From Leucoraja ocellata (taxonomy: Eukaryota): a stretch of 64,000 nucleotides of DNA. Both the position numbers and the translations under genes were made by a program. Below, piece after piece: positions 17,470 to 64,000 of the stretch (positions are counted from its first letter, which is position 1; every line of letters begins with the position of its first letter). Where the stretch lies: assembly GCA_036785375.1 (NCBI GenBank), contig JAWMAR010000709.1:62001-126000 (forward strand). The letters are read 5' to 3'. The notes beneath the pieces were generated by a model. That model searched no databases and was not told the origin of the DNA. It saw only the letters and a program-made list of their open reading frames with translations.

Positions 17470-20400
17470 ACCTGGGTAGTTCTACACGGGTGGGTTTAAA
17501 CTAGATTGGCAGGGGTTGGGATCTCATACAGGTCAGAGGCAGTTGAGAGGTTAACAGTTGGTATAAAGGGTGGTGAGCGACAGGTTGGAGGTCAGAATAG
17601 GCAGGAGAAAGGAGGAGAGTGAGGAAGGAAGGTTGGTTTAAACTGCAAGTATTTTAATGCAAGGGACCAGACGGGTAAGGCAAATGAGCTTAGGGCATGG
17701 ACAGGTATGTGCGACTGGGATGATGTAGCCATTACTGAAACCTGGTCAAGAGAGGGACAGGACTGTCAGCTCAATGTTTTGGGATAGAGGTGCTTCGGGA
17801 GAGACAGGGGTGATGATAAAAGAGGGGTGGGTTACATCATTGGTTAAGGAGAATGTCACGGCAGTAGTCAGAGGTGACATTACAGACGGTTCATCTAGTG
17901 AGGCTATATGGGTGGAACAAGAAAGGGATGATCACCTTGTCGGGGGTGTACTATAGACCCCCAAATAGTCAACGGGAACAGATGTGCCAGGAGATTGATG
18001 ACAGCTGCAAGTCAAATAAAGTTGTTATAGTAGGGGATTTTAACTTTCCCAGTATTGACTAGGAAAATAATAGTGTGAAAGGTTTAGATGGGGTGCAGTT
18101 TCTCAAAGGTGTTTGGGAAAGTTTTTGCAACAATATGTAGAGGGCCCCACATGTGAGAGGGTGACACTTGATCTAGACTTGGGAAATTGGAAAGGGCAAG
18201 TGAATGAGGTCATCGCGGAGAAGTCTTTTGAGACCAGTTCCCACTGTTTGATTAGGTTATAGATAGGGACGGAGAGGGCTCACGTGTTAAAAAGCAATAT
18301 AGGGATAAGGCCAACTTTCAGGGTATGAGAGAAAGTCTCGCTCAAGTTGATAGGAGCAGGTTGTTTGAGGGGAACAAATCATCAGCCAAGTGGGATGTTT
18401 TTAAAAGTGTGATGACAAAAGCTCAGCATATGCACGTCCCTGTTAGTAGGGATGTTACAAAACTTACCTTCAGCAGCGCTGCAGTTCTGTCACTGGCCGT
18501 GTACGCGACTTTGGCGCCTTTGAAGGGAGAGGGGCGGGATTAAAATGCCGTTGTCTCCTACCTGTCGGAGATATATTTTCTCGGGATACTACCTAATTCT
18601 GAATAATCGTTCCGACTGCCGTTCTGTGAATTTTGTTTTTAAACCACGGGACAATTTAATCGCTGGAGTAAAATAAAAATGCTACTTCTAACACCGACAA
18701 CGGGACGGATCTCCCGTACGGGACAAAACATAAGGTAAGTTGTTTATTTTACATATAAACTTGCTTCTTAGGATTACTTTAATCAAACTTTCATCAACGA
18801 AAATGTGATTATGTAAATATACAAACCGGCAGTGTTTTTCTTGCCGATATGGGGTTTAAATTCACCTCAAACCGCAACTTTCCAATCGATCGCGTTCCAC
18901 AAAATCTCACTCGCAAGATGATTAAAAGGGCCATTAATTTATGGGAATTAAACACTAAATTCCTTCCATTTGGCCTATAAATTCATGACAATGAGATTTA
19001 AAAATCATGTTATATTGTGAATTCTTGTGTGAATGCTATTTGGACACTTAGGCTATTTAAAAATGTTAATCTTTCCTTAAGAAATGGATAGGTGTTTAGA
19101 TCTAGTAATTGAATTGTGTAATTAGCTACAATTAGGTAACTAACTAATTATATGTTTTAATTTCAGGTCATCCATGTAAGATTGTTTCATATTTGTTTCA
19201 GAATGCTTCAATCTATAATAACTGAACATTTCATTCAGTTCTCTTAATTTTTAAGAAAGTTATGGGTTTTGACTGACCTCAATCACAGCTTTTGAGTTAA
19301 GTCAATGGAAAAGCAATAGGGAACAAGATGCTAATTTCAGAGTATGAAAATGGCCATAACTTTTTTAATACTGAAGATATGAAAGTGAATTAGGTGTCAA
19401 ATTAAACTTATTTTTGTGCTTTTTCTGATGGGTTAAATTGCAGACTTGATTTTTAAAATCTCAAAATTTTGTAACATTGCTACTGTTAAAGTGAAGGGCA
19501 AGGCAGGCAAACGTAAGCTGATGAGAGAAATAGAGGCATTGGTTAAGATCAAGCATAGGAAAAAAGTACAAAAGGGCAAAAAGGGGTCATGAGATAGTTC
19601 TGGCAAATAGCATTAAGGACAACCCCAAGAGATTTTATAAATACATAAGGGGGGGGAAAAGGGTAACTAGAGAGTGGGCCCCCTCAGGAATCAAAGCAGT
19701 CACCTCTGTGGAGCCACAGGAGATGGGCAAGGTCCTCAATGAGTATTTCTCCTGTGTATTTACCGAAGAGAAAGACAGGAGGACGGCAGAACTTGGGACA
19801 GTCAATGGAAGTGACTTGAGAGCAGTCAGTGTTATGGTCAAAGAGGTGCTGAAGGTACTAACGTGTATGAAGCTAGACAAATCTCCAGGGCCTGATCAGA
19901 TATATCCGAGGACATTGTGGGAAACCAGGGGAAATTGCGGGAGCCCTGTTTGAAATTTATGAGTTGTCTTTAAATGCAGGAGAGCTGCCAGAAGAATGGA
20001 GGTGCCTTTATTGAAGAAGGATTGCTGGGAAAATGCTGGGAACTATCGGCCAGTGAGCTGAACATCTGTAGCTGGAAAGTTACGACAGGTTATTCTGAGG
20101 GATAGGATATACAGGCATCCTTCAGAATAGTCTCTGATTATGGATAGTCAGCATGGTTTTGTATATGGGAAGTCGTGTCTCACAAATCTGATTGAGTTTT
20201 TTGAAGACGTGACCAAAAAGGTTGATGAGGGCAGAGGTGTAGAGTTGTATATATGGACTTCAGTAATGTATTCTGTTGGGCATGGTAGGCTGCTCTGGAA
20301 GGTTAGATCGCATGAGATCCAAGGAGAGATAGCCGAATGGATAGAAAATTGGCTTCATGGAAGGAAGCAGAGAGTGATGGTTGCTTCTCGGACTGGAGGC

Positions 20401-20887: not shown

Positions 20888-22445
20888 CAGTGCATGCAGA
20901 AAGTATTCAGACCCCTTCACTTTTTCAACATTTTGTTGTTACAGCCTTTTTTTTAAATGGATTTAATTCATGTTTTTTTATCATCAATCTACACACAATA
21001 CCACAGAATGAAGAAGCGAAAAACAGGTGTTTAGAAATATTTGCAAAGTAATTCAAAATAAATAACTGAAATATAGCACATTTAAATAAGTATTCAGACC
21101 CTTTGCTTTGACACTCAGGTTCATCCTATATTTGCTATATTTAAGAGGGAGTTACATGTGGCCCTTGTGGCTAAAGGGATCAGGGGGTATGGAAAGAAGG
21201 CAGGTACGGGATACTGTTGGATGATCTGCCATGATCATATTGAATGGCGGTGCAGGCTCGAAGGGCCGAGTGGCCTACTCCTGCACCTATTTTCTATGTT
21301 TCTATTCTGTTTCCATTGATTATCCTTGAGATGTTTCTACAACTTGATTGGAGTCCACCAGTGGTAAATTAAATTGATTGGACATGATTTAGAAAGGCAC
21401 ACACCTCTCTATACAAGGTCCAACAGTTGACAGTGCAAAAACCAAGCCATGAAGATGAAGGAATTGTCTGTACACCTCCAAGCCAGGATTGTGTTGAGAC
21501 ACAGATCTGGGGAAGGGTGTAAAACAATTTATTCAGCATTGCATGTCCCGAAGAGCACAGTGACCTCTGTCATTCTTAAATGGAAGAACATTGTAACCAC
21601 CAGGATTTGTCATAGAGCTGGCCACCTGTCCAAACTGAGCAATCGGGGGAGAAGGGCCTTGGTCAGGGAGGTGACCAAGAACCTGAACTGCCTAAGATCC
21701 AAAGCATACCACCTGATCTGTGAAACACAGTGGTGGGGGTGTTATGGCCTGGGCATGTATGGCGGCTGAAGGTACTGGCTCATTTATCTTCATTGATGAA
21801 ACAACTGCTAATGGTAGTAGCATAATGAATTCTGAAGTGTATAGACACATCCTATCTGCTCAATTTCAAACAAATGCCTCAATACTCATTGGCCGGCAGT
21901 TCATTCTACAGCAAGACAATGATCCCAAACATACTGCTAAGGCAACAAAGGAATTTTTCAAAGCTAAAGTCAATCACCCGATCTGAACCCAATCGAGCAT
22001 GCCTTTTATATGCTGAAGAGAAAACGGAAGGGGACTAGCCTCCAAAAGAAGCATAAGCTAAAGATGGCTGCAATACAGGCCTGTCAAAGCATCACCAGAG
22101 AAGAAACCCAGCAACTGGTGATGTCCATGAATCGCAGACTTCAAGCAGTCATTGCATGCAAAGGATATGCAACAAAATACTAAACATGACGACTTCCATT
22201 TACATGGCATTGCTGTGTCCCAAACATTATGGTGCCCTGAAATGGGGGGGGGGGGGGGCTATGTATGAAGTGCTGTGATTTCTAGATGGTGAAACCAAAA
22301 CGTATAAAAATACCCTTCATTAAAATCTGACAATGTGCACTTTAACCACACGTGATTTTTTTTCTATTACAAGTCTCAAATTGTGGAGTGCAGAGACAAA
22401 TAAATAAATTATGGGTCTTTGTCCCAAAGATTATGGAGGGCACTG
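20888..22445 (+). mobile_element. Tc1/mariner transposon remnant (composite), with CR1 3' fragment at ~21135-21305
   Basis: HTH part MKELS...RHRSGEG.KTI..AL.VPKSTV and catalytic part KHSGGGVMAWAC...FILQQDNDPKHTAK; cagtg...cactg ends. Confidence 0.88.
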
Positions 22446-22802: not shown

Positions 22803-25030
22803 CTGCAAAACAATTTAAAAAATACGAAAATTATTTGCATTTGAAGGTGTGGTTTCTTTTATATTGAAGATCCCAAAAAAACTGCTAGAGTACATTTTTC
22901 CACTCTTTCTGCAGGTGTGAGCAAGAGAAAGTTAATTTTGTAGATCAAGGATCTTCAATCATGGAGCTTTGATGAAAGAGCAGTGGGCGAAACATTAACT
23001 CGCTAGCTGCTGCTCATCTCAGTATCTTGCAATTCGGTATTTTGCTCTTAGTGTCTGTCATTTTTATCTAATGTTATGATCACAACTGCCTAGATAATAT
23101 CTCAGATAATCTAGATAATATCTAGATAACATCAAAGATCAATATCTTTGGACAAATATCAAATACCTATGCATTATTACTGTATCAAGTATAACAACCT
23201 GATTTTTAATTTTGCATAAAAGGAAAAAATGGAAAATGCCTGGCAGTATCCAAAAGATAAATTACACATGAACAGTTTAAGATAAACAGAATGTTTATTG
23301 CTGTTTACCTAAAAAAGGGAACACAAGGTTATTTGTAATGTTGTTTACAGGAGGCTTATTTTCCACACCCTCCCATTTCCAGTCTTACTTGATACTCGCT
23401 TTCACACCAGACTCAACAAAAACTTCAGTGATTCTTTTTATTTCTCTGCTCTGCTGCAGTTTGAATAGGACTTGTCTGATGAGCAAAACGTTTGCTCTAC
23501 TTACTGAGGTTACTGTCAATATAGAATGAGCCTAGCAGTATCTGGAGAGTGATGGCAATGGCCTTGCTTTAACAAAACTCACTAAGGGAAAGTGGGAATC
23601 TAAGCCAGGTGGTTAGCTGGAATATTTTCATCTTCTTGCAAACTAGAAAACCTTGTGTTTATTTCGGATGCCATAGGATTCCACCTTTTTTTCCCTTTTA
23701 ATTTTTCGCCAATTTACACTTTTGCCGTTTTCTTGCTTCAACTTCTTTCACGTGGCATGCACAGCCTAAAGTTGTTGGACAACTTGTTCTATTTGATCTT
23801 CCGTTTGTGCACGTCGAGTTGATTGCATTAGTCGAAACAGGGCGTACAACATGAAAGCGCTTTAATATCAGTCATCAGTTGCAGACCAATCAATCCATTC
23901 ATTTTCCATCCCCTAGGTATAGATCACTTGCCTTTACCTCTGATTACCTTGCAAATCCACTAAAGTGCTACTTCAATTTTCAGTTCAGACAACAAATAAT
24001 GGACATTATGTATGCAATCAGCATTCCTTAATGTTTTTATAGTTAAAATGTGTTCTTTCTTGTTATACCTTTGTTAATTATACAATACCAAAGTTCGTCG
24101 TTTTGATCAGCATATTAAGTAGCCTTTGTTCACTTTGCCATAAACACTGTGTGATTTAAGATAGATGCACATCAGTGGCTTCGTTGTTTTACATCCTATT
24201 ATGCATATTAATTTTTTTACATTCATATTTCATGCAAGTGATCTTCATAAGCTAATATTTCCAATATCATGGCACTGATTAATACTGACAACTTTTCAGA
24301 ACCATCCAACACATCTATTTTGTACTAAAAAGATCTTAATAAAATGTTCATGGAACACACAATTTAATAAATGCATTTAAATTGTCACAATTATCCAAAC
24401 GAAAACTGCAAGGTCTCCAAGCCCATCATGTTGTTTTGGATTTTCCAATAACAAAAGGGCATCTAAAATCTATAACCATTTATAATCAATGTCTTTTGCA
24501 TTATAGTTTCATCCGATTCCCTAAAACACAAGTTCAAAATAAACAATGACCTGTTCCTATAAATCTCTCACAAATCTAAATCATGCCTTCACTGATTACA
24601 TCTATTCACAATTCATCTATTCACTTAATTTTAAGATTTGAACATTGTGTTGAAATCCTTCCATTGCATCACAACACTCCAGATTTTTAATCTCCTCCTT
24701 ACTACGTCTTATTTTCACCTTTGTTCCTCTGAAGTTAACCTGTTGCATTCCTCCTGCATTCACGGCATAATTCACAGCCAATGAGATCCCACTCTGTATC
24801 TTAATTCTATCCCTCAACCTTCAACTCTCCAGGTTCCATTACTTCTTCACAACCACCTTTAAAAGGCATATTTTTGACCTTCTTCCTTGACTCAATATTC
24901 ATTATCCTAAAAACTTAATTACATTTCTCAATTACATCAGCAGATATACAAATTCAAAAGTGGATTTTTTTGTACAAATTTAAATCATACAAGTACACAG
25001 GTTTAAAGTAAAATATTATTGATTCCCTAC

Positions 25031-25109
25031 CTTTGTTATGATCAAGAAATTCTTCTGTAAATATTGGAATATTAAACATAGACATTTTCCCTTGCTGTTC
25101 GTTGTTCTT
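25031..25109 (-). CDS. HMG20B: HMG20 exon preceding the coiled coil
   Basis: ttttctcag|KNNEQQGKMSMFNIPIFTEEFLDHNK|gtaggg. Carries the conserved F.IPIFTEEFL.(H/Q)NK motif; 79 nt, phase 0 to 1. Confidence 0.92.
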
Positions 25110-25848
25110 CTGAGAAAATAAAATGATAAACTGAATTAAAGATGAGAGCCTTTAAATAATGCCTATTAAATCTATTGGATTTTGCCGATTCATACTGCTA
25201 AGCAAGACTGAACTAAACAGAAGCCTATACCACTTTCAGAATTTTTATGTTTTTTTTTTTACGTACTTCTGGTGCAACAACTTCATGTAAAAGCAGTCTT
25301 CAACCAAATAGCACCAGCAATGTGGTTCGGCTGTTTTGCAGTTTATTTCATGGTCAATGAGGGAGCCTATCTGGATGGACAGAACACTAAATTAAATGCT
25401 ACAATTTTGTATATTAGCTGAGACACCTAGACTTGTGGCTGTTTGGACCCTTCCTCTCCAACTGAAACATACTTGTGTTATAGAGCCACCTGGTGTCACT
25501 TTCCTACGCTGCAATGTAAATTAAATATTTTTATGGAAACAGCTGCTGAAATTGTATCTGCAACTTGACCGATATAATTTGGCAAATCTGAAGGCTGATT
25601 ATAATGCAAACAAAAGACACAACTGTAATAAAAAGACTGACAAAACTGAACTCCTTTTCTAAAAATAACCCAACTGCAGCATTTATTTCAATACCAAGGT
25701 GCATTCCAGAAGCTCTTACCTCAGCATGCATACCATTTGACAATGAATGAGCGGTTTCTAAAAAAAGCATAGAATGATAATTAATTGAGAAAGACAGAGT
25801 CTTGGAAAAGTATTGATCCATAAAATTTCCACCCATGTCTTACTGTAC

Positions 25849-25871
25849 CTTAGTTTTATTTTCTTTGCAAT
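25849..25871 (-). CDS. HMG20B: Candidate 23-nt linker microexon (DCKENKTK)
   Basis: Flanking exons require a phase 1 to 0 exon. tcttttcattgcacgtcag|attgcaaagaaaataaaactaag|gtacag fits. An in-frame longer version using an upstream ag (59 nt) is also possible. Confidence 0.55.
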
Positions 25872-26011
25872 CTGACGTGCAATGAAAAGATACAAATCGG
25901 TAAACATCTATTTTTAGTTTGCCACTAAGAATCCAGCTCTTAGACTGAACAAATATTCAGTCTAACACAGTAGTAGAACACAGTATAAATGATAAGAAAA
26001 AGCATAACTAC

Positions 26012-26132
26012 CTTTCCTTAGCTTCTTTTCCTGGATGCCAATTTTGCTCATTTTGCAAGCTTCAGTTCGCTGATACTCCTGCAGTTCTTTTATGTACTGT
26101 TGCTTTGCCCGCTCAGCTTCATCCAGATAGCA
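26012..26132 (-). CDS. HMG20B: HMG20B-like exon, HMG box helix 3
   Basis: ttttaag|CYLDEAERAKQQYIKELQEYQRTEACKMSKIGIQEKKLRK|gtagtt. 121 nt, phase 0 to 1. Matches HMG20B RYLDEAEREKQQYMKEL...IQEKKIKK. Confidence 0.92.
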
Positions 26133-27349
26133 CTTAAAAATTAATGTGTATTTTTAACAATATAGAGTGGAGGGAATCAGAAGTAAATAATTCCTTGCTT
26201 TAAAGGACATTTGAAGAAACATTAACATTCATGAAAATATATCATCCCAAAATAATGGCACAGACTTAGCAGTGAGCAGCAAACACTGCAAGTTAATTGC
26301 TAAAGCCAGTAAAATAATTGTAATTACATTTTGTTTTCCTCCCAGCAGATACCCAGAAAAACACACCCAGAAAAACACGGGAAGGTTCTTCATCAATTAA
26401 GTCTTGCGCATTGTTGCATTATTCGGATTTTACAGGGGTATCGGACGATTGTTGACAAAACTGGATCCATACAGAAAAATCTGAAAACCCCATACAGAAA
26501 AATCTGAAAATATTGATGGCAGGGCTCGAAATTAACGGTTACCCGGGTGCCAATGACCACCCAAAGTTTGCAGATACTAGTTTATACCGAAGATAGACAC
26601 AAAAAACTGGAGTAACTCAGTGGGTCAGGCAGCATCTCTGGAGAAAAGGAACGTGAGGTTTCGTGTCTACGGCGGTTGTATTGCGGGGCAAAGATATTAG
26701 GTGCGTGGTGACGAAGGGTCGGAGCAAATGACGGGCCCCGCACAGCGGCTCCATCTCCTCTTCCTTCCGCACCCCGCCCACCCTGATAGCGGCCGCTGCT
26801 AGCAAATCCGCTAACGGCGATAACCGCTTTCAAAATAAACCCTCTCGCACGCCGAGGCCGGGAGGATGGAGGGAGGGGGAGGCCTCCTTCCGCTATCTGA
26901 AGCATCTGCACCAAAGATCCTATAGCTATAGGATCGTTGAGCTGCACCGCTCTGCCCCGCATCTTGCTGTTGGCTGGAGATGGGGAGGCAGTGGCGAGGA
27001 GTTCACAACCGCCTCCCCCTTTGGCAGCGGCACTTGGCGGTGGACAGGGACAGCCAAGGCAGCGGGGCGCTGTTGTCCGAGGAGCGCTGACCTTCCTTCC
27101 TCCCCACTTCCCCCCTCTCTCTCTCTCTCTCTCGTACATCCCCTTCCACCCCTCTTATCCTGGGACCCTTCCTCTTCATCCCGCACTGATCCCCATTCCC
27201 GCCTCTATTCAGTCCTCACTGACATTCCCTGTGCTCCCATCCCCATCTACCCCCCCCTCAATCTATTCATCCTGCGCTGATCACCCTATCCACCTCGCAT
27301 TGATTCACCTGCCATTCCCCTTCCATCCTACACTGATACCCCAATTCAT

Positions 27350-27850
27350 CATGTACTGACCCCCTATTCCCATCCATCCTGCACTTCTCCTCCATTCATC
27401 CTGCACTGGTCCCCTCATTCATCCTGCACTGGTCCCCTCATTCATCCTGTACTGATCCCCTCATTCATCCGATATTGATCTCCCCATTCATCTTTTACTG
27501 ATCCCCTCCATTCATCTTGTACGGATCCCCTCATTCAACCTGTACTAATCCACCCATTCAACCTGCACTAATCCACTCATTCATCCGATACTGATCCCCT
27601 CATTCATCCTGTACTGATCACCATTCATCCTGTACTGATTCCCTCATTCATCCTGTACTGATCCACCATTCATCTTTTACTGATCCCCCATTCATCTTTT
27701 ACTGATCCCGCCATTCATCCTGTACTGATCCCCTCATTCATCCTGTAGTGATCCCCCATTCATCCTGCACTGACCCTCTGATCCACACTGTACTGACCCC
27801 CCCACCCCCCCATTCATCCTGTACTGATCCCCCCCATCCATTCCGTATTG
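27350..27850. repeat. ~21-22-bp minisatellite (cccctcattcatcctgtactgat)
   Basis: About 20 degenerate tandem units visible. Confidence 0.9.
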
Positions 27851-28631
27851 ATCCCCCCCCAATCCCCCGTGCTCTCCCCTCACAATTTTACATACTCCAA
27901 CACATACTAATTTACCTGACTCAATCCATCCATTCCGGGCCGATTGCCTTCTCAACCCTCCCCCCCCCCCCCCCGTTATCTATCCACCCTGCACTGATTC
28001 ACACACATACTCCCCCCCTCCCCTTCCCTGACCCTATTGGGCTGGAAATGTCTTCAGAGCGAACATTGACTATGTTTGATAACGGAATGCAATCAAATAT
28101 GTTTTAATTCCAAATGTTATTATTTGTTTTAGTCCATAAAGATGGATTAATTAAATTGTTAACACATGAAACATTAAAACCGCAGTGTTCGATTGCTACC
28201 GTTGACACGATGTTACAGGATTCATTTTAACGGCAAATCAATGCTCTTAATATGGAGTATGAGTACTGTAGTTATTTAATGAGCAACATTCACAACTGTA
28301 CGTTGGATTTATCCAGGTTTTACTTCTACAGTCGGTCATATATTTGGTCAGGAGATACTTCAGTTGAAATTTTAACGTTAATTCTGAAGTGGGAACGATG
28401 GAAATAGCGTTTATCAATATATATATTTTTTAAATCTGATGCGTCTAAACTGGGTATCTTCATTGTTGTTCACAACACGTACATCTAATCTGAATGTCCG
28501 GTAAGGTGGTGTTTTGACACCTTTAAACATGTTACCAAAAGAACATTTGGCCAGTTATGTCCTTTGGCCATCTCTTGTCAGTTAGTGTAATGTTTAGCCC
28601 ATCAGATGGGCACAGTCGGTTTTAACAGCTA

Positions 28632-29147
28632 CTAGACCAATGGCAGTCCCGTTGGGTCTGCTCCCCCAACGCAGCCGTTCCCTACCCGCAGCCCCCACGG
28701 GAGACGTGGCCCTCGAACAGAAGCCGTTCTTGAAAGGCCAAATTAAATGGCGTCTCTTGAGGTTGAAATGCGGGCGCCAGCAGCCGTTATGGTCGCTGGC
28801 CAGCAGGAGGCGACAAAATGAGTGAGTGGGGGGGAGAAGGATTTGATTAAAAACGTGTACTTAAAGGCGACGAAATGTAATGAGCAGCAGATACTTAGAA
28901 AGAAAAGCGAAATCTCCACCGAAATGAAAAAGACCTGGGAGATTGAGCGTCTGGATTCGGTGTGGCAGTGAATCAAAGGAAGAAAGTAAAAGGTTCCATT
29001 CCGATTGGACATCTGCGAGCATCGGCCATTCCGATTGTACATCTGCGAGCATCGGCCGTTCCGATTGGACATCTGCGAGTATTGGGCACGAATCAAAAGG
29101 CAGAAAGACAGCCAGTCGTCAGGCACAGAGCTTTATAGATATATAGA
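28632..29147 (-). mobile_element. Non-autonomous Helitron
   Basis: Minus strand starts A|TC and ends CTAG|T, with a subterminal hairpin gcagaccc-aac-gggactgc shortly before CTAG. No TSD. Internal 30-bp tandem x~2.8 (28996-29079). Confidence 0.75.
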
Positions 29148-29801
29148 TTATCATAAAATGCCTTTAGAAATTTCCTTGCAACCTGATTATTTTGTTATGG
29201 ATAAATTATGTGGGAAGTGAGAGTGTTTCTGTACCAATAACAATAATGACCCGTGCTACGGCCATGTCATGGTAATTTTCGGTCCTTCACAGAAAACATG
29301 CTTGCATCAATCTGTAGTGTGCATGGTTAAGCATATATGTTACCATGGTCCAGGATTTATTGACACAGGTTGATCATACGCTGAATAATCCAACCACATT
29401 TTTGTTTGGAAGTGGAAAGAACTAATAGAAATTGCATTAATTGCAATGTGTAAAAAGAGTTGAGATACTGTATTATAATTTTGCTGCATGTCATTGTGGT
29501 ATATATCATGCCTCGATTGGTGAATATGTTTAGTTTGTGACTTTATTTGAAGCAGAAATAATATGTGAATGCTTCATTGAGCATAATTCTGACTGGTAAC
29601 TACACACTTCGTCCGAGCACATTATCGCATGTGTCATGCAAACAGTCTTAAATGACCACCTAAACTATCATTTGGCAACCTAAAAAGCTGCCAAGGTTGC
29701 CCGGCTGGCAACAGGGAAAAAAAGTTAAGTGAGAGCCCTGGATGGTGGTCAAATTTAGTTAGTACCACTATACTTTTTGTCTTCTAAACACTCTGAAACG
29801 C

Positions 29802-31566
29802 AAAAAGAAGAAAAAAGCAAGCACAGACTTCTATAAAGATCCCTTTAAGTTTGTAAGGCATTTTCACAAAAGAGAAAAGTGAATCCCTGAAAGCGTCAAA
29901 AAAGGAGGTTGAAGGACACATCAGAACCATCCCCACTGATGAGCTAAAAGATGAACTGATACTTGTCCCCGCTGACATCAACAAGACCTTGCTCCAGGAA
30001 AACTCAAGCTGTGGTGCTTCCAGTATGGCATACTACCAAGACTCATGTGGCCTTTAACTGTGTATGAAATCCCCATCAACAGAGTGGAAAAGCTGAAAAG
30101 AATGATCAGCACACATGTGAAACAGCGGCTTGGACTTCCACGATGTTTAAGTCTTGTCGGACTGTACAGGAGTGGCAAACTGAAATTAGCCATTGTAGGT
30201 CTTGTGGAAGAATTCAAATGCACTAAAGCAAGGTTGCTCATGACCATTATTGAATCTGAAGATATTGTTATTCGAACAGCGCACCCCCCATGTGGCAACA
30301 GGGAGGATTTGGATCCCATCTAAAGCCGTTCAGAGTGCAAAGTATGCTCTTCATTTCTGGTATGTGGTTGGCCAAGTACAACATGGGAGAGCCAGGCTCA
30401 GGCTTGTACCAAAAGCTCCTCAATGGCACAAGGCGTCATCCGTGCAGAAGAGACGGCTCGTGGTGGAGGATGTGTGAAGACAGGAGGCAGAGCGGCAAGC
30501 CAAGGCCGTCTCAATGGCCAGGCAGGGCCAATGGATTAACTGGGAGAGCCTGGAAAAGAGGAAACTCAGCTGGCGTGACATTGGCAAATGGAGGGATCTC
30601 GGCTAAGTTTTGTCATCAGAGCCACTTATGACATTCTATCTTCACCACAGAACCTGAAGCAGTGGTTCAGAGAAGACCCCTCTTGCTCCCTTTGCCAAGC
30701 ACCTGCATCACCAAGGCACATTTTAACAAGATGCACTAAGATCCTTGCCAAAGAGCATTACACTTGGCAGCATAACCAAGTTCTCAGACAGTTGGCATCA
30801 ATCCTGGAAGAGGCGAACTTCACAAATGCTTCCCCACAAACATCAGCAGGAAATGTTCATTTCACAACATTTGTACCAGCAGGCTAACCTCCAGAGCACC
30901 AGATAACATCAAAGGATGCAAGCATACTGCAGCCTGCTCGGGATTGGAAAATGGACGTGGACTTGGAAAAAAAGTGTGTTTCCCCCAGATATTGTGGCTA
31001 CAACACTCTGGCCAGACATGGTCCTGTGGTCCACAATGGCCAAGTTGGCATACGTTGTGGAATTGAAGGTGTTGAAGAAGCTTGTGACAGGAAAAAGACC
31101 AAGTACTCTGAACTTGCAACTGAAGCTGCCCAGGATGGCTGGAAGACCAAGATTTCCCCTGCAGAAATGAGGGTGCAGGGGATTTGTTGCTACATCTACG
31201 ACCAGTCAATTGAAGAAAATGGGGGCGACGGGTCGCTCACACCACCAAGCAATCGTCATTGTCAAATTCAGAAGAAAAAAGCAGCAATTGGCTTTGGATT
31301 AAAAGGAAAGACAACAATTGGGATGCATGTTGAAGACAGGAGGGTATGGAACTGAGGGGGGTGTTCCATACCCTCCTATCACCATTGAGCCCTCTGGAGA
31401 CGTTGTGGGCTTATCAATGAAACGTCAAAGAAGGAGGATGCCCAACTGATGACCCCAATGACGTACCTACCCTACCTTTCCCAATCCTACACTCCAATCC
31501 CATAGCCAATATCAAGAGTACTGACTTACTACATGAATTGGAACATCAAGTCCTATTAGCTCTACA
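29802..31566 (+). mobile_element. HERO-clade (R2-like, restriction-like endonuclease) non-LTR retrotransposon, RT domain deleted
   Basis: FYKDPFKFV pre-RT motif joined to KLWCFQYGILPRLMWPL..YEIP; CCHC finger CSLCQ..HILTRC; PDMVLWS...VVELKV RLE motif. Several frameshifts and stops. Confidence 0.8.
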
Positions 31567-31599
31567 TTGCCCACTCAGCTTTATTCAGATAGCACTTAA

Positions 31600-33136
31600 T
31601 ATAATAATATAATAATAATAATAATAAAAGCTTTATTTCAGACACAGGTTCATATAACACATCATACAGTATAAGGAGATACAAAAAATACATTAAAAAT
31701 TGCATATTAGCCTATAAGATATACAAGCTATTGCACCAATGCCATCTTAGCCTAGAAGTGAATCTATAGCAGCTTTTCAGAGGGCTGACTAGGGCTTCAA
31801 TTATGTGGTTCTCTGACTTGTCCAGGCAACACATATAACTAAACATCAGCTGTCTTAAGAGTGCCTCACAGGTTGGCACTCTAGTGGACACAAACAATTG
31901 ACTGGCACTATGCCACCTAGGGACACGAAGTAGCAACCTCATTGCATCATTGTATGCTACCTTGAGCCTCTGCATACTCTTTTTCTTAGTTCGACCACAA
32001 TTGAGCAGTATATAACGGTGTGATATAGGTTCTGAACAAGGAACACTTCACAGTCAGAGCACATAGAAAACTTCCTTATAAGTATGTTAGCTTGAAAATA
32101 AATTTTACAGCGCTGTCGGTAGAGGTCTTTGTCATCCGTCCAGTCATCGGATATGACATGACCTAGGTATTTAATTTCCTCACACACAGCAAGAGGACTG
32201 TCTGACAAATAAAAGGTCGAAAAAGTTGATTTCCTGTCCTCAGCGCTTCTAACTATCATTATGCGGCTTTTCTCAGCATTATACTTTATGTCATAATCAA
32301 GGCCATACTGAGAGCACACCTTCAACATCTGCTGCAGCCCAGCACTATATGGACAGAGCAGGACCAGGTCGTCTGCATACATAAGATGATTAATAATAGT
32401 GTTGCCCACAAGACAGCCAGTTTTTAACCTATTTAACTGATTTGATAATTCATCCATATAAACATTAAATAAAATAGGAGACAAAATTCCTCCTTGCCGC
32501 TCTCCGTTACTAACACAGAATGGAGCAGATACAACATTGTCCCATTTAACCTGAAACGTTTGATGGGCATACCAAAACACTAAAATTCTCACAAAAAATT
32601 TAGGGGCACCTCTATCTAGTAATTTTACAAACAATTGTTCATGATTAATTCTATCAAATGCCTTGGACGCATCAATAAAACATAGGAATACAGATGAATT
32701 CAGGCTTGTGTACCTGAACACAATCTCTTTAAGAGCATAGATACACTGGTCAGTTCCATGTTTTCTTTTGAACCCAAACTGATTGTCAGTAGTAAGGACA
32801 TACATTTCTAGCTTTGTTAGCAGTATTCTCTCCAGTATTTTAGACAAGATACTGGCTAATGCAATAGGTCGATAATTGTCAATACTGTTGAGCTTACCAG
32901 TCTTGTCTTTAAGCACAGGCACTAACATTACAGACATAATAACATTTGGCAGGAAACCATGAACCAGACAACCATTAAATCACATGGAAAGCAAAGGGCA
33001 GAGCTTATAGCTGGCATATTTTAGATGTTCTGCAGTAATGCAGTCCATACCGCAGGCTTTGTTGTTATCCAACATGTTAATGGCATCATAGACATCTGCT
33101 GCCCTAACTATCATATCTGCTGAGAGATCAATATGT
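31600..33136 (-). mobile_element. 5'-truncated RTE-X-like LINE
   Basis: 326-aa RT ORF (NYRPIAL, QFGFK, DASKAFD, QGGILSP, YADDLVLL), (att)n tail after aataaa, and acttaa TSD (31594-31599 / 33137-33142). The LINE call is firm; the clade is less so. Confidence 0.82.
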
Positions 33137-34810
33137 ACTTAAAAATGAATGTGTATTCTTAACAATATAGAGTGGAGGGAATCAGAAGTAAATAATCCCT
33201 TGCTTTAAAGGACATTTGAACATATTAACATTCATGAAAATATATCATCCCAAAATAATGGCACAGACTTTGCAGTGAGCAGCAAACACTGCAAGTTCAA
33301 TGCTGAAGCCAGTAAAATAATTGCAATTTCATTTAGCTTTCCTCCCAGCACATAATCAGAAAAACACTGGAAGGTTCATCGTCAATTAGGTCTTGTGCAT
33401 TGTCGCATTATTCAGATTTTACAGGGGTATCGCATAAGGTAGGCAAAACTAGCCCCATACAGAAAAATCTGAAAATATTGATGGTGGGCAAATTTAGTTA
33501 GAACCATTATACATTTTGTCTTCTAAACACTCTGAAATGCTCCTGAATATCTCAAAATCATCCAACAATATTTGGTAACATATTAAAAGCTTGAAAACTG
33601 TCTAAAAGGAGCATGTGATTTGGTGCCTTGGTGGATAAGTTTAATGGGAGTGTTGGAACTAGGTTATAAAGGAGCAGATTTTGATTCTGTAATGCTAGCA
33701 GAGCAAGCAAATAAAAGGGCTAGTCATCCAGGTATGTGCACTAACTATCCACAGATCCAAATTAAACTCCAGCAGCTATGGAATTTAAATTCATATAGTA
33801 ACTTAGAAAAACTTGTCTTTGACGATTAGCACAAAACTGTCGTATTGTTATAAAACAAATTTGATTCAGTAATATCCATTCAGGGACAAAATTTGTCATC
33901 CTTACTTAGTCTGTACAATATATGACTCCAGACCCATGTCATGTGGTTGGCTCTTAAATGGCCTCTGAAAAGATCTAGGAAGTCTTTGTTCACGGATACA
34001 TTCAGATCCACAGGTACAGGGAAAGCACCACACACAGATTCCCCTTCAATTTACAGCTCTAATATGAAAATCCATTGCCAATCTTTTCTTGCTAGATTTT
34101 CAGCGCTGTCATTTAACTAAATTTTGGAACGCTCTAGTCCACAGCAAAGTTGAAGCACTCTGCACAACTGCAGCGGTTCAACAAAACACCTCATCCAGTC
34201 TTCTGAAAGGCAAATACAAATGGGCAATAAATGACACCCAGTTCCCAAATCAATTAATTTTAAAAAGGGGAAGAAATGAATACCAACAATAGACTAACTT
34301 AAGTAGGTGATTTACAAGTTAGACCGGAGGAAGACTTCTATTTTTTGAACAATTCCATTAATGGTGTTGCATCCCCTTTCTCGCCATCCCTCCCCCACCT
34401 TAGTCGTACCAGCTTCAAAGTCGTCTTGAGTCTCATTGCCTGTACTCGTTTTCACCTAGCACACAGTTAACAATGACCTGTTTCCTTTATCATGGTTATG
34501 TTTTTACATATCGTTCATTCATTTGTTCTATATCTCTCATTTCCCTTTTCCCTGACTCTCAGTCTGAAGAAGGGTCTCAACCCGGAACATCACCTGTTCC
34601 TTTTCTCCAGAGATGCTGTCTGAACTGCTGAGTTACTCCAGATGTGTGTGTCTATCTTTACTTTATCAGCACGTACATTTATCTGTTGTGTCTTCTTCAT
34701 TAACTTGCTTAGTTACTTTAACAAAATAATTTGTTCCAATTAATCAGATATCTTACAGGCTTTTCAAAATTAATTGTAATAATCCGATTATGCACTGTAA
34801 ATCAGCAAAC

Positions 34811-35020
34811 CTGTTTGTCTTCAGGCTGGAGTTTGCTCCATTCACTGCCCAATGTCTTGATGATTTCTTGAAAAGGTAGATCTGGTTGCTGTGCACGCAG
34901 TTGTTCACGACGCTCATTCAGGAACCGCATGTAGCCTGTAAGTGGAGCTTTGGGACCATTGGGTACGTTTTTTTGGCGCTTTTTGCCCTTTGGCCGGCCT
35001 CTTTTCTTGGTCACACGCTG
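34811..35020 (-). CDS. HMG20B: HMG20B-like exon encoding basic region and first part of the HMG box
   Basis: [70 protein letters not shown] closely follows HMG20B ([36 protein letters not shown]). tag/cag NAGNAG acceptor, gt donor, phase 0-0. Confidence 0.93.
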
Positions 35021-57711: not shown

Positions 57712-58140
57712 TGTAAATAGCTCGTTCTAAGCTTCCCCCCCTAGTCTAGTTTCAGTCAATAAAATACTGAGTCACGCACTTGCGCAACTAATCTTTATTT
57801 TGGAAAAAACACAATAACAGTTCCCACTACTAACCACCACGGGTTCGATCCTCGTATCTGCCTGGCCAAGCCCTCCTAGCCTCATTCAAGCAGACACTCC
57901 AGAAGGTCACGCAGTCCTAAGAATTCTCCCAGAAGATCGACACAGAACCTCGTTGGAGCAGCCTTTTATAAGTCCCCGAACCTTGAGGGGCCAAACCACA
58001 TGGGGGTGGTCTCTTTAAAGTCCAATAACAGATATCGATTAACACAATACACATTTCCATAACCCAATAATACAGTAATTAACACATTGTATTCAAACAG
58101 AGTTTCTGGAAGGAAGCAAACAAGAATAAACATTGAAACA
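57712..58140 (-). mobile_element. LTR-like segment at the 3' end of the ERV
   Basis: Minus-strand TATAAAA (57964-57970) followed by AATAAA (57794-57799). TG...CA limits are approximate; no TSD or matching 5' LTR found. Confidence 0.5.
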
Positions 58141-58159
58141 TGTGCCCTGAGATTCACGC

Positions 58160-60600
58160 AGTTTCTCCAAGGCTCAACTTCTGATCCTTTCCTCACCCAA
58201 GTCTTCACTAAGACATAGTCTCCAGGTTTTACTTTAATGGGAGTTACTAATGAAGGCATATCATCATAGGCTGCTCTCACTGCACAATGTAAATCCCTTA
58301 AGGCTCTGGTCAAGGCTGAGATGTAGTCGGTCATCTCTGCAGTCATATGGTGGAAATTAACTATTTTCATTGCATTCTGGTTCCAAGGGGTTTTTAACGG
58401 CCTGCCGTAAATAATTTCAGCTGTGTTTAATCTAGATTTCCCTGCAAGCATGACTCATCTGAAATAGTGCTATTGGGAGTAATTTAATCCATCCGAGTCC
58501 AGTCTCCACCTTTAATTTGGCTAATTTAGTTTCAAGGGTCTGGTTTGCCCTTTCTACGAGTCCATCAGCCTGTGGTCGAAAAGCACAGTGTAATTGCTGC
58601 TGGATCCCCAGCTGCTCACAAAACTCTTTATTGATTTGTCCAATAAAGTGTGGACCATTATCTGAGCTAAGTCGAATGGGAATGCTGAATCTAGGGACAA
58701 TTTCTCTCATTAGCACCTTGACAACAGTAGCAGCTTTATTGTCAAGGGTCAGGCATGTTTCGATGCACTGGCTGAATACATTGACTATCACAAGAATGTA
58801 TTTATATCCTTGGCATTTTCCTAGTTCAATATAGTCCATTAGCAATGTCGCAAAAGGACCCTTAGGCAATGGGGTTTTCCCTCCTTCACACCCTACTCCT
58901 TTCACTGGATTGTATTTCTGGCAGACCAGACAATTACTGCTTACCTCTGAGCAAAGTATTGTAATTTTGGATGCCACCAAGTAGCCAATATAGTGTCCTC
59001 TACTGCCCTTGCACCGCAATAGTGTGCATAGTGCATACGGCTAATGAGTTGGTGGGAAGGCAATTTAATAAGATGGCACAATATTGAGGGGAATTTACTC
59101 CATTTCTGTAATTTAAGTCACCCGATTGGTCAATATATAATTCAGAGAAACGCTCTGAAAATTAATCTGCTCCTTCTCCCCTTTTTGGTCTTACATCTAG
59201 TATTCTGGCCAAATCGATTGGTTTTTGAAGGGTGTTTGCAAGGGTTGTTAAAACAACCTCTTCCCTTGCACCATTGTCCGCTATTATATTTGCGAGAGCT
59301 TCATGTGACGGATGCCGTAAATTCATTAGGAATCGGGTGTGCTCACTTGGGGTAATTATTTACTGGATCACCGCCCATAAATCTCGGGAATCTGCGTATA
59401 AACACGCATTGTAGTTCTAAGTGATCCACAAAGAAGAGGGTGACTTTCTATGATCGGGTATCGGACTTAAAATATCCATCATCTCGTTAGGCTTGCATGG
59501 GGAATAGACTCTAATTGTACGGGGATTATTTGCACTCATTGCGTTGGTTGGATCAAAAGAAACAATAGGCATTTCCCTTACAGGGAACAGTCTAAGGGTT
59601 TTTTGTTTAGTTTCAAGATCTACCTTGGCTTCTTCAATGGTTGTCTCACCCCCAGATGTATCTTCCCCTTCACCAGGGGGTTCTTGGTACCTTCTAAATG
59701 ATGTATTTCCTTCTCTAATTGCTCGTCCAATTTGTCTAGGGGTACGCTCTTCTTTCTCCTTAACTAATTGAGTTTTTTTCAAGATTGGCTACTGGTAGCA
59801 TGTACTCTAGGACTATCTGTAATCAATGGAGCGGTGGGGTTTAAGGAAGTCTGTGCCATGGAATCTAATTGTCTATTCCGTTCACAAGTTCCACAGTGTG
59901 CATCCGAGGTATTGGGATTGTAAGGTGAATAAGGTGGGGAATGTGAATTCCTAATTTTAACACTTTCCCAATCTTCTAAATAATCATTGCCATCCCTCTT
60001 GTAACCAGTGCCAACCATCAGATCCTCACGCTTTAAACTTATGGAAGCCAGTTTCTCTGTGGAAGATTTTCTTTTCCCCTTATCTTTAATCCTCTCGGGC
60101 TCCTCCATTAGGCTACCTGGAGGTTCAAATGCTTCATTATCCTCTAATTTTATCCCCCGCTTTAGTTGCTTCCTTCCAACTTACCATTGTTTCCACCGCT
60201 CTACTCGCTTTCTGTTCCTCGTTATAATTTTTCCCCAATTCAATTAATTATTTTACCTCTGCACTACCGCTGCATTGCCAGACAATCTGCTCAATGTATT
60301 TCAATCCCTTTACTGTATCTATGCCCCCTTTGGGCCATAATTCGCTCCCTAATTCTCTATTTAATACTCCGGAAAGTATTCTCAATTGGTCAGCTTTTTG
60401 TGGAATTTCACTGCATATTTCTTGTAACGGACTTTCCGAGTCAGCAGTCATATCTTTATTTACGTGGTTCCCCATTCTATTGGATATGGAAGCAACTCTC
60501 AAGCTACTTGCACTTCTTAACAATCTTCCCCTTTCTAATTTCAAATTTAGTCATTTTTAAACAATATTCAAAAATTAAGGTGCTCCAGGAAACAACCAAC
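58160..60600 (-). mobile_element. Endogenous retrovirus (epsilon/gamma-like), gag + integrase only
   Basis: Gag starts MGNH (ATG 60475) with a WPKGG matrix motif and a capsid-like VYSP..P.E...I...IPD; GRGCFN knuckle start. Integrase HHCC (HYAH...CLVC) and D-D-E core (MDYIEL, SSDNGPHF, GLVERANQTL). Confidence 0.88.
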
Positions 60601-62425: not shown

Positions 62426-63394
62426 TAGTGTATATAATGGTGACTGTATCTTTAAGAACTGAGTACCAGAATGGTGTGATTGTGATATATTAATTATCTT
62501 ATCAGTCTCGTGAATATGTGTGAGCATGCTCAGTGTAAATTAATAAAAAAATAAAGAAGTCCTACGCTGGCAAAGGCTTGTCTGAGAACATGTGCTTAGC
62601 TTTTAGAACCCTACATGCCACGATTGTAATATCTTACATGCATAATGTTGTAAACTAAAGCAAATGTAGCCATTACAAAGTTCCAGAACAAATTTTCAGC
62701 AAGTTCATTTTTGTCCTTTGTATCTCCCTAAATAAAGAGGAACAGAATATTTGGTTACTAATGTGGTGTCAGGCCAAGCAATATTGCCTCAAGTTGGCTT
62801 GGTCCTCACGAAAGTCCAGACATGTGGGGTGCAGTGGCAGGTTTGCACAAATCAATTCTTATATCTTATATTATATTTTAAAATAATTTAAGTTACTTTG
62901 AACCATATCTGACTATCAAAGGCATTTAAAACAACAAGATACTGGTGCTGAGGCCTCCGTGATACAGTGCCTTAGGCCAACTTGTTCCTAAAATTAACGG
63001 CACCTCATGAGATATCCCTCAGGTGTGCAGGGTCAGCTCATCCAACTGCTCAGGGTAGGAGCAAGCTGGTTGGTTGTGTTCCCACCTTCTTCAGCCCATT
63101 AGTTCTCCAGTTATCTCTGAAGTACAAATCTGAAATCTGTGGTGCATGAATGGATTTGTAATAGTAGAGTGCAAGCTGGTATAAATATTACATAGTTTGC
63201 TTTCATTTAGTTAAGGAGTGTACTGAACCACAAATGGAACAGAAATTAAATATTAATTGTAGCCATCAGCACAGACATATTTTTTAAAAACCAGGAAGTC
63301 TGAACAGAAATTTTCAAACAGATATGCGATTCTTAAAGGCATTTATGGATTTTCAGGCATTTATGGATTCTTTATGTCCATTACCTTATTTATG

Positions 63395-64000
63395 TAGGTA
63401 TGTTACAAAACTTACCTTCAGCAGCGCTGCAGTTCTGCCACTGGCCGTGTGCGCGACTTTGGTACCTTTGAGAGGGGGGCATGATTAAAATGCCGTTTTC
63501 TCCTGCCTGTCGACCGATTTTCTTAGGCTGTTTAGTTGCTGCAGAGAAATCGCTCCAACATCCGTTCTTTCAAGTTTTTTAAAAACATCGCTGGATAATT
63601 TAATTGCTGGAGCAAAATAAAAATCGACTTCTAACGCCATCAACGCCGTCAACCCCGACAACGGGACGGATCTCCCGTACGGGACAGATAAAGGTAAGCC
63701 ATTTAATTTACATGTAAACTTGCTTCTTAGGATTACTTTAATCCAAATTTTACATAGCAAAAAGGTGATTTAGGCCCCATAGGAACCGGCAGTGTTTTTC
63801 CTGCCGATATGGGGTTTAAATTCACCGCAAACCGCAACGTTCCAACCGATCCCGTTCCACAAAATCCCACTCGTAAGATGATTAAAATGGCTTTAATTTA
63901 CACGAATTAAACACTAAATTCCTTCCATTTGGCCTATAAATTCATGACAATGAGATTTAAAAATCATGCTATATTGTCAATCCTTGTGTGAATGTTATTT
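63395..64000. mobile_element. Second copy of the TAG-terminus MITE (runs off window)
   Basis: taggtatgttacaaaacttaccttcagcagcgctgcag; colinear with 18447 onward. Confidence 0.88.

Follow-up and report, generated by a model that had tools for sequence, protein, structure and literature searches.

Among the non-LTR retrotransposons described to generate long target-site duplications (TSDs), Dualen-4b_cRei of Chlamydomonas shows them in 13 of 25 insertions with a median length of 915 bp, which its authors suggested to be caused by the combined presence of RLE and APE (PMC9977147). The locus investigated in this study resembles Dualen in that a LINE of RLE type, 5'-truncated as are many Dualen copies, is placed between hundreds of base pairs of duplicated target, but relatives of our element contain RT and a C-terminal RLE region only, and the insertion is a single old fixed copy in a vertebrate. 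For L1 in HeLa cells, up to 10% of the TSDs exceed 100 bp, NER-deficient cells show a median of 1,495 bp (PMC5223499), and extremely long TSDs are associated with 5'-truncated copies (PMC2912911), while for ZfL2-2 one of 25 insertions carries a TSD of 1,228 bp (PMC2666801). In these cases, and in tandem duplications bridged by L1 (PMC7058536), the 3' end of the element is found at the first nick and the 5' end is joined far downstream, as appears to be the case here. The L1 and ZfL2-2 events also share with the one proposed below a sporadic occurrence and variable length, and exon duplication has been proposed as their consequence, but they concern tailed APE-type elements and new insertions in cultured or tumour cells, whereas our element is of RLE type, tail-less and fixed. 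R9 of Adineta vaga, for which a TSD of 126 bp is cited in PMC6895275 and PMC9977147, is according to these secondary accounts also an RLE-only R2-group element with a TSD above 100 bp, but it is specific for a site in rDNA, in contrast to the single host gene and the 3.4 times longer duplication described here. For HERO elements, we found neither TSD nor 3'-end data in the literature searched; as its scope excluded Repbase Reports and papers behind a subscription, among them the first descriptions of HERO and R9, this does not establish absence from print.

The locus is contained in a stretch of 64,000 nucleotides of Leucoraja ocellata (the window; assembly GCA_036785375.1, contig JAWMAR010000709.1, positions 62,001-126,000 of the forward strand), and all data on repeats and element refer to this one old fixed copy (n=1). 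It resides in an HMG20B-like (SMARCE1-related) gene on the minus strand, whose exon at 34811-35020 encodes the first half of an HMG box (70 of 70 residues identical to protein P0126), followed by an exon at 26012-26132 encoding the second half. The latter is a functional host exon with 100% identity to P0126 over 40 amino acids, P0126 itself matching HMG_box with an E-value of 4e-19 in a domain search. The entire structure of two repeats and enclosed element is located in the intervening intron (26133-34810), with 28 nt of the upstream repeat reaching into the exon, and the orthologous HMG20B-like proteins show a single normal exon junction, although a comparison of proteins is blind to introns. 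The site of insertion is a protein-coding exon, neither rDNA nor a microsatellite (n=1).

The upstream repeat, copy A, consists of 26105-26519, which comprises the 28 nt of exon (26105-26132), the splice acceptor and intron, and of 29741-29801, as defined by self-BLAST and alignment. The downstream repeat, copy B, consists of 31567-31599, a decayed duplicate of the exon start and acceptor, and of the intron duplicate at 33137-33540, whose first six bases (33137-33142) are the second copy of the target duplication of a later insert; all four parts are given on the plus strand. Self-BLAST of the window returns three colinear pieces (26105-26137/31567-31599, 26132-26487/33137-33475 with an E-value of 1.6e-118, and 29741-29801/33480-33540). 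After removal of later insertions, copies A and B measure 471 and 431 bp, respectively, a difference that mostly stems from two local tandem duplications of 14 and 23 bp in A. As the earlier note had described, the excised copies are colinear and moderately diverged: their alignment contains 395 identities in 428 bases (30/33, 318/348 and 56/61 in the three pieces) and 33 mismatches (19 transitions, 14 transversions) with 49 gap columns, equivalent to a K2P distance of 0.082, and its local score of 477 compares with a maximum of 29 among 300 shuffles. Beyond the repeat ends only 9 of 30 and 6 of 30 positions are identical, so similarity ends at both borders. The statement that the repeats adjoin both ends of the element exactly also holds, since the last base of A is 29801 and the first of B is 31567, leaving neither a spacer on either side of the 1,765-bp element nor an extra short duplication at either junction. 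The repeated sequence is host DNA, composed of intron, a splice acceptor and 28 nt of the HMG20B-like exon. In the exon piece of copy B, three transitions change amino acids at positions where orthologues carry the residues of copy A, except for one R-to-Q exchange in P0129, and the acceptor of copy B, at 31594, is a decoy that leads to a stop within 11 codons. We discarded an interpretation of the repeats as LTRs, as they contain a piece of host exon and no third copy is found within the window, and an origin of copy B from host mRNA, as most of its sequence is intronic and the element RNA is of the strand opposite to the pre-mRNA.

Both repeats were later interrupted, and the nesting shows that both inserts are younger than the HERO-like insertion. 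Copy A harbours at 26520-29740 a non-autonomous DNA transposon with no assigned strand, terminal inverted repeats of 17 nt (82%) and a target duplication of 8 bp that is 3 nt short on the left side; the label hAT-like would follow from these termini, and none of its three ORFs matches Pfam. Within it, at 27317-27804, we observed a 23-bp minisatellite. In copy B, a 5'-truncated non-LTR element (RTE-X in the earlier note) sits at the duplicated splice acceptor on the minus strand (31600-33136), with an RVT_1 match (E 4.5e-35) and a tail of TTA type; its target duplication measures 6 bp.

The element between the repeats is itself incomplete. Its 5' piece on the plus strand (29802-29979) corresponds to about residues 270-329, preceding the RT, of the full-length relative P0003, thus defining it by tblastn as 5'-truncated, and shares 47 of 61 residues with P0009. 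It is followed by a C-terminal region (29980-31330, plus strand) equivalent to residues 690-1148 of P0003, which spans the post-RT region, a CCHC knuckle and a PD-type endonuclease region (323 of 447 residues identical, with 7 frameshifts and 2 stops), and by a 3' UTR (31331-31566, plus strand). The join at 29979/29980 marks the loss of about 360 codons, among them the RT core, which is located in P0003 as RVT_1 at residues 407-640; this loss is absent from the earlier note. The same deletion was not found among the listed proteins having both flanking motifs, which are separated by about 413 residues in most and by 238 in the shortest, one two-copy fusion aside, although predicted proteins are a poor source of decayed copies. 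As judged from its relatives, the element is an R2-group (RLE) non-LTR retrotransposon: P0003 contains RVT_1 in a single ORF, whereas the window copy is devoid of the RT core, and a family profile searched against the PDB finds R2 proteins best (E 2e-38) with L1 ORF2p behind (1e-27). In the alignment, the window copy retains a C-x2-C-x7-H-x4-C and a PD motif in columns conserved across 21 relatives, with a spacing of x7 compared to x8 in the published description. The label HERO, taken from the earlier note, is one that we presume to apply, and none of the protein matches listed for the element carries this name. Resemblance to the HERO clade, with its described members HERODr, HEROFr and HEROTn, is found in a single ORF with RT, CCHC and a C-terminal RLE, in fish hosts and in a target outside rDNA, as described in PMC3636483, PMC4640811, PMC2790886 and PMC9004415; in the same sources, the clade is mostly without target specificity, with some members specific for microsatellites. 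The full-length relatives may differ by a conserved Cys/His motif (C56, C58, H72, C78) upstream of the RT, in a region missing from the window copy, whereas PMC2790886 describes HERO without such a motif. No further copy was detected in the window by tblastn, an Rfam search of 25000-35000 returned two weak miRNA matches under the gathering score, which were rejected, the predicted fold of the 3' UTR is ordinary (z -0.84) and the ESM Atlas yielded unnamed clusters and leads to zf-RVT/RVT_1 only.

The properties of the two junctions offer insight into how element and duplication are related. At the 3' side, the models P0305, P0307, P0308 and P0193 from other genomes all lose similarity at 31565±1, immediately before copy B begins at 31567, a terminus that was located via translated UTRs to ±1 nt. 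The last UTR frame matches P0305 across all 48 codons (E 5.9e-5), and in the carp model P0193 8 of 10 residues match up to 31566, better than in all 389 of 389 control windows. Past this point, the four members of the P0305 cluster diverge, with one continuation in three and another in the fourth, while P0307 and P0193 run on identically into the leader of a next copy, where 13 of 14 positions fit and, for the last nine, none of 200,000 random 9-mers was equally good. The element thus stops at the natural, tail-less 3' end of its family, right at the start of the repeat. At the 5' side, copy A ends at 29801 and the coding match of the element starts at 29796-29803; the final 3-9 nt of copy A are in frame with the element protein, and the last target codon encodes Arg, a residue shared by 50 of 64 homologues and 12 of the 13 closest. 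This end is truncated, with probable microhomology as deduced from proteins rather than a DNA consensus, a feature that does not separate repair pathways. With 2 stops and 8 frameshifts over about 508 codons, the element has decayed to a degree consistent with the age of the split between the copies, for which 4 gap events are counted across about 430 bp with two lineages summed, although the test is loose, as 2.7 stops are expected at 4% divergence and values of 1-8% are all compatible with the two observed.

These results favour a common origin of duplication and element, and the combination of a natural 3' end at the start of the repeat, a 5' truncation with microhomology and matching decay favours a single event. 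We consider it on balance probable that the locus reflects one retrotransposition with a long TSD, an occasional outcome in which host repair completed the integration. Features of TPRT with a TSD are present, including an intact 3' terminus at the repeat start and a direct repeat of host DNA that adjoins both ends and includes a conserved exon piece. In such an event, the bottom strand would have been nicked at 26104/26105, a position 28 nt inside the exon that is marked by the repeat border, presumably by the endonuclease of the element, and reverse transcription would have been primed there from the extreme 3' end of the RNA, as suggested by the natural terminus at the junction. Synthesis of the cDNA would have ended early, and the RT core may have been lost by a template jump, already in the source copy, or later. 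The 3' end of the cDNA could then have annealed over a few bases to the top strand about 431 bp downstream, where the same chromatid or its sister carried a distant nick or break, and fill-in would have duplicated the interval. A second-strand cut about 430 bp away by the element's own endonuclease is a candidate step. Copy A, downstream in the direction of transcription, retained the intact exon and would thereby have allowed the allele to survive, whereas copy B, upstream in that direction and with its decoy acceptor, decayed, and two elements inserted later. The RT-core deletion is left unaccounted for by this single-insertion model.

All junction evidence would equally fit the same insertion if long duplications were a regular trait of this RLE-only family, with second-strand cleavage or a cDNA jump preceding it often taking place 0.1-1 kb downstream, a view that we regard as rather unlikely. 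It draws on the RLE-bearing precedents R9 and Dualen, the latter showing long TSDs also in older copies; the fact that RLE-bearing Dualen makes them routinely, whereas sporadic cases concern APE elements in cultured cells, favours this view. Three of the four copies in the P0305 cluster also share a 3' flank of at least 78 codons, which is a lead but could be explained by a repeated target or a segmental duplication. An identification of the flank shared by P0305, P0306 and P0308 as the leader of a next copy was rejected, since eight of eight leader comparisons were at the level of shuffles. Against a regular trait, the relatives P0307 and P0193 join head-to-tail directly with no long spacer, and a distant locus (L006, 28% identity, 6-kb flanks on both sides) is flanked by (GA)n tracts and lacks a long duplication. 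L006 is the one locus with long flanks on both sides among seven (25-49% identical) retrieved from 33 candidate stretches in a scan of genome contigs for DNA of the family; no long flanking duplication was found in the seven, their 3' UTR matches are at chance level (best 11-21 nt), and they presumably constitute eukaryotic contamination of prokaryotic assemblies.

Patching of an existing break, either by endonuclease-independent capture of cDNA or by DNA template switching (MMBIR/SDSA) via another genomic copy, which would yield a duplication with a templated insert, appears improbable. Template switching would fit the internal deletion and the 5' microhomology, L1 cDNAs have been found joined to distal breaks (PMC13526784) and bridging sister chromatids to form tandem duplications (PMC7058536), and the absent tail leaves an RNA origin without proof; however, a switch at the DNA level would not be expected to hit the natural 3' end within 1 nt, and the RNA-templated form differs from the favoured single insertion solely in the maker of the first nick. 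Recombination between two insertions or cDNA intermediates, located on homologous chromosomes or sister chromatids at a distance of 431 bp, would explain the internal join as a crossover at 29979/29980 in a chimeric element, and L1 intermediates recombine experimentally (PMC13526784), but we deem it quite improbable, as it requires two events in the same orientation within 431 bp for the sole copy in the window, with both pieces nearest to the same relatives (P0009, P0003). Local tandem duplications are present at the locus and blunt insertion is described for some R2-group elements (PMC3636483); still, a tandem duplication that preceded a TSD-less insertion into its junction would be very improbable, given that the element must strike one position in about 860 duplicated bases without extra bases and that element and duplication are of similar age. 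We found no point in support of an assembly artefact placing two haplotypes in tandem, which is contradicted by 8% divergence, by the separate insertions of the two copies, each accompanied by a short target duplication, and by decay of the exon piece in copy B only, and which we view as negligible.

Of the earlier proposal that HERO integration made the duplication, the joint origin and the TSD geometry are thus upheld by the natural 3' end, the 5' truncation and the decay, whereas its portrayal as an unrecognised way to duplicate host DNA was overstated, in light of published TSD-like duplications of hundreds of base pairs to kilobases (Dualen, L1, ZfL2-2, and R9 with 126 bp); duplication of exons, presented as an overlooked consequence, had likewise been named in published work on long TSDs. 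The second half of LINE integration is still an open question (PMC6895275). With its 431-bp duplication, this insertion of an RLE-only element, fixed in the germline, provides a clean natural case beyond cultured cells and algae. If a one-off, it would be a well-preserved instance of a known rare outcome. The locus also offers a cheap genome-wide test, as TSD finders limited to short direct repeats, such as those of 5-30 bp in PMC2912911, would overlook such a duplication. In a further and rather unlikely reading, this tail-less family with RLE only would routinely complete its integration in the germline of vertebrates at a distance of 0.1-1 kb from the first nick. If true, short intragenic duplications in fishes and sharks, splice sites and parts of exons among them, would have in this family a source that has been overlooked, an APE domain would be unnecessary for long TSDs as in Dualen, and direct head-to-tail arrays may stem from the same loose 5' joining. 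If frequent, such events would matter for the annotation of transposable elements, for how small duplications and decoy splice sites arise, and possibly for the by-products of RLE-based gene insertion tools.

The earlier note's claim that a HERO element is flanked by a direct duplication of about 430 bp of host DNA was confirmed at the coordinates proposed, with three colinear direct matches appearing in a self-BLAST of the window. Copy A (26105-26519 and 29741-29801) and copy B (31567-31599 and 33137-33540) enclose the element (29802-31566, plus strand) and, upon excision of later insertions, align with 395 matches, 33 differences and 49 gap columns (K2P 0.082), or with identities of 30/33, 318/348 and 56/61 if the pieces are left unjoined. 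The main piece scores 477 compared to a maximum of 29 among 300 shuffles, and the similarity drops outside the repeat, with 9/30 and 6/30 identical positions in the flanks. The copies measure 471 and 431 bp, respectively, and since copy A contains local tandem duplications at two places, one of 14 bp and one of 23 bp, the original repeat probably comprised about 431-434 bp. The later insertions, a hAT-like sequence in copy A (26520-29740) and a minus-strand LINE in copy B (31600-33136), are each confined to one copy and carry a short target duplication of their own, and both are thus younger than the duplication.

The whole structure falls within one intron (26133-34810, 8.7 kb) of a minus-strand gene that is HMG20B-like. 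The gene contains an HMG box, and the identity of its exons to the protein P0126 (named SMARCE1-related) is 100% or close to it. The nearest accessions are presumably skates, and named sharks are found among more distant orthologue clusters, which identifies the host as a cartilaginous fish. The repeat begins 28 nt within the exon 26012-26132 and therefore takes in nine codons as well as the acceptor. This exon piece shows, in copy B, three residue-changing transitions (D to N, E to K and R to W) at positions where the residues of copy A are kept in 8 chondrichthyan-type orthologues, except for one R-to-Q change in P0129. Its acceptor, if used, would lead to a stop at codon 11. The normal exon junction in 15/15 proteins of the nearest cluster is weak evidence that this decoy acceptor is unused, since the set was gathered by similarity to the normal exon. 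Three of these proteins (P0144, P0147 and P0148) lack the residues MSK within the same exon. The younger LINE sits precisely at the decoy acceptor (31594-31599/33137-33142), splitting the acceptor from the pyrimidine tract that belongs to it. Outside the two later insertions, 32 TTAA sites occur in 3,909 nt of the intron, and a landing at this place would have a chance of about 3% if TTAA were preferred. The figure is post hoc, and either selection or luck could explain the placement.

The element matches two segments of its full-length relative P0003, about residues 270-329 (29802-29979) and 690-1148 (29980-31330), and is therefore 5'-truncated, with a loss of about 360 codons that takes in the RT core (residues 407-640 of P0003). 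The two segments meet at 29979/29980 in two Ile codons, which suggests a microhomology of at least 3 nt. Closest relatives are gene models from an eel (242/319 identical) and a devil ray (130/171). A profile built from 21 relatives finds R2 proteins as best PDB matches, and a CCHC knuckle and a PD motif are both present, which by sequence criteria places the element in the R2 group within the non-LTR retrotransposons, HERO-like by label. Directly after its stop codon, a near-perfect hairpin (31335-31380, 18-nt arms, 94%) has a right arm unlike that of relatives, suggestive of a fold-back template switch.

The main new evidence concerns the 3' end, which was located via ORF calls and gene models whose translation runs through the 3' UTR. 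P0305 was retrieved with the last UTR frame that is free of stops (E 5.9e-5; 63% across the full 48 residues), with two further multi-stretch matches in long proteins left out, and the carp model P0193 contains four colinear UTR matches, the last of which extends to 31566 and scores above all 389 control windows. In a codon-profile alignment, P0305, P0307, P0308 and P0193 stop at 31565, and P0207 and P0024 stop at 31481 and 31461. Beyond the common end, three of the four members of the P0305 cluster share one continuation and P0307 has another, which is the same as in P0193 (13/14 positions compatible, with an equal fit of the last nine in 0/200,000 random 9-mers) and which leads in P0193 into a full-length ORF. 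The shared stop and the common continuation indicate that the family's 3' end is fixed and tail-less, that relatives are joined directly head to tail, and that the window copy stops at this terminus directly before copy B. A junction at the natural terminus is what the established model of target-primed reverse transcription (TPRT) predicts and what capture of a random fragment at the DNA level does not, and we infer that the window junction reflects the former. Among relatives, head-to-tail tandems take two forms: in P0193 and P0307 the 3' end of one copy is joined directly to the 5' end of the next, and in P0195 and P0024 neighbouring copies are fused. P0305, P0306 and P0308 are identical in their 3' flank over at least 78 codons, with no detectable similarity to the element leader; a repeated target, a tandem unit or an amplified long target-site duplication (TSD) are candidates for this flank.

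At the 5' junction, the last target codon encodes Arg in the element frame, the same residue as in 50/64 homologues and 12/13 of the closest, and the two preceding codons are partly compatible with the element protein, which suggests a microhomology of 2-9 nt as judged from proteins only. In the proposed mechanism, for which the terminus, the positions, the orientation and the order of nesting can be seen directly, the bottom strand would have been nicked by a presumed enzyme at the observed position 26104/26105, with priming at the RNA 3' end at the observed terminus. Reverse transcription would have ended early, and the RT core may have been lost by a template jump, in the source copy or later. 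The cDNA would then have been joined, about 431 bp downstream, to DNA of the top strand, with a second end of putative source, followed by fill-in.

A single event begun by TPRT, in whichever version, appears probable. That repair resolved it as an occasional outcome is somewhat favoured, and long TSDs as a habit of the element's family seem doubtful: the flank common to three copies offers a lead in this direction, but head-to-tail joins are direct and without a long spacer, and the sole distant locus with long flanks (L006) lacks a long duplication. It is rather improbable that an existing break was patched with the element, as DNA-level capture of a random fragment would not be expected to place a junction at the natural 3' terminus.

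The element has accumulated 2 stops and, across about 508 codons, 8 frameshifts (about 5 per kb), and between the repeats 4 gap events are counted over about 430 bp and two lineages (about 5 per kb per lineage). Simulated decay at 4% divergence yields 2.7 stops, with 1-8% all compatible with the observed 2 and 15% disfavoured (P of 2 or fewer stops 0.0065). The ages of element and duplication are consistent with one event, short of proof. We consider a recombination between two insertions to be quite improbable, a duplication preceding the element insertion to be very unlikely, and an assembly artefact to be scarcely credible.

Other repeats in the window include an LTR-retroelement or provirus-like remnant (57966-60550, minus strand) with an integrase core (rve, E 1e-13), whose upstream ORFs have no Pfam match, a Tc1/Sleeping Beauty-like transposase fragment (21431-21769; HTH_SB, E 2e-17) in a different intron of the HMG20B-like gene, and a 600-bp repeat in two 81% identical copies (18446-19041 and 63394-64000) that is probably a dispersed element. 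Eukaryote-type RLE retroelements at seven distant loci (L001-L007) within prokaryotic assemblies and MAGs likely reflect contamination; L006 is located on a 1.5-Mb contig labelled Nitrospirales with (GA)n tracts on both sides, and L005 shows a 119-bp terminal overlap.

Long TSDs have been described in Dualen-4b, where TSD-like duplications in 13/25 insertions (median 915 bp) were tentatively ascribed to RLE plus APE (PMC9977147), in ZfL2-2, with a 1,228-bp TSD in 1/25 insertions (PMC2666801), and in L1, where no more than 10% of events in HeLa cells have TSDs over 100 bp and the median is 1,495 bp without NER (PMC5223499). Long TSDs are associated with 5'-truncated L1 (PMC2912911, whose own survey spanned 5-30 bp), L1 cDNAs can be joined to distal breaks or to one another (PMC13526784), and sister chromatids bridged by L1 give rise to tandem duplications (PMC7058536). 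TSDs measure 126 bp in R9, 13 bp in R4 and 9 bp in R8, with second-strand cleavage described as unclear (PMC6895275). The suggestion of an unrecognised way to duplicate host sequence including exon parts is thus not supported, since long TSDs are published for Dualen, L1 and ZfL2-2 and exon duplication has already been named as a consequence of those of L1 (PMC5223499). The consulted parts of descriptions of the HERO clade (PMC4640811, PMC3636483, PMC2790886, PMC9004415, PMC7650587, PMC13580325) contain no TSD data and those of 10.1101/522623 nothing relevant, and long TSDs of HERO are not reported in the literature searched, with Repbase Reports and subscription papers outside its scope. Collectively, the case described here is a real and clean example of a familiar type of event, the insertion of a LINE accompanied by a very long TSD, and works like the corresponding events of Dualen and L1. 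Within the literature searched, such a TSD is apparently unreported for a fixed vertebrate insertion of an RLE-only element outside rDNA.
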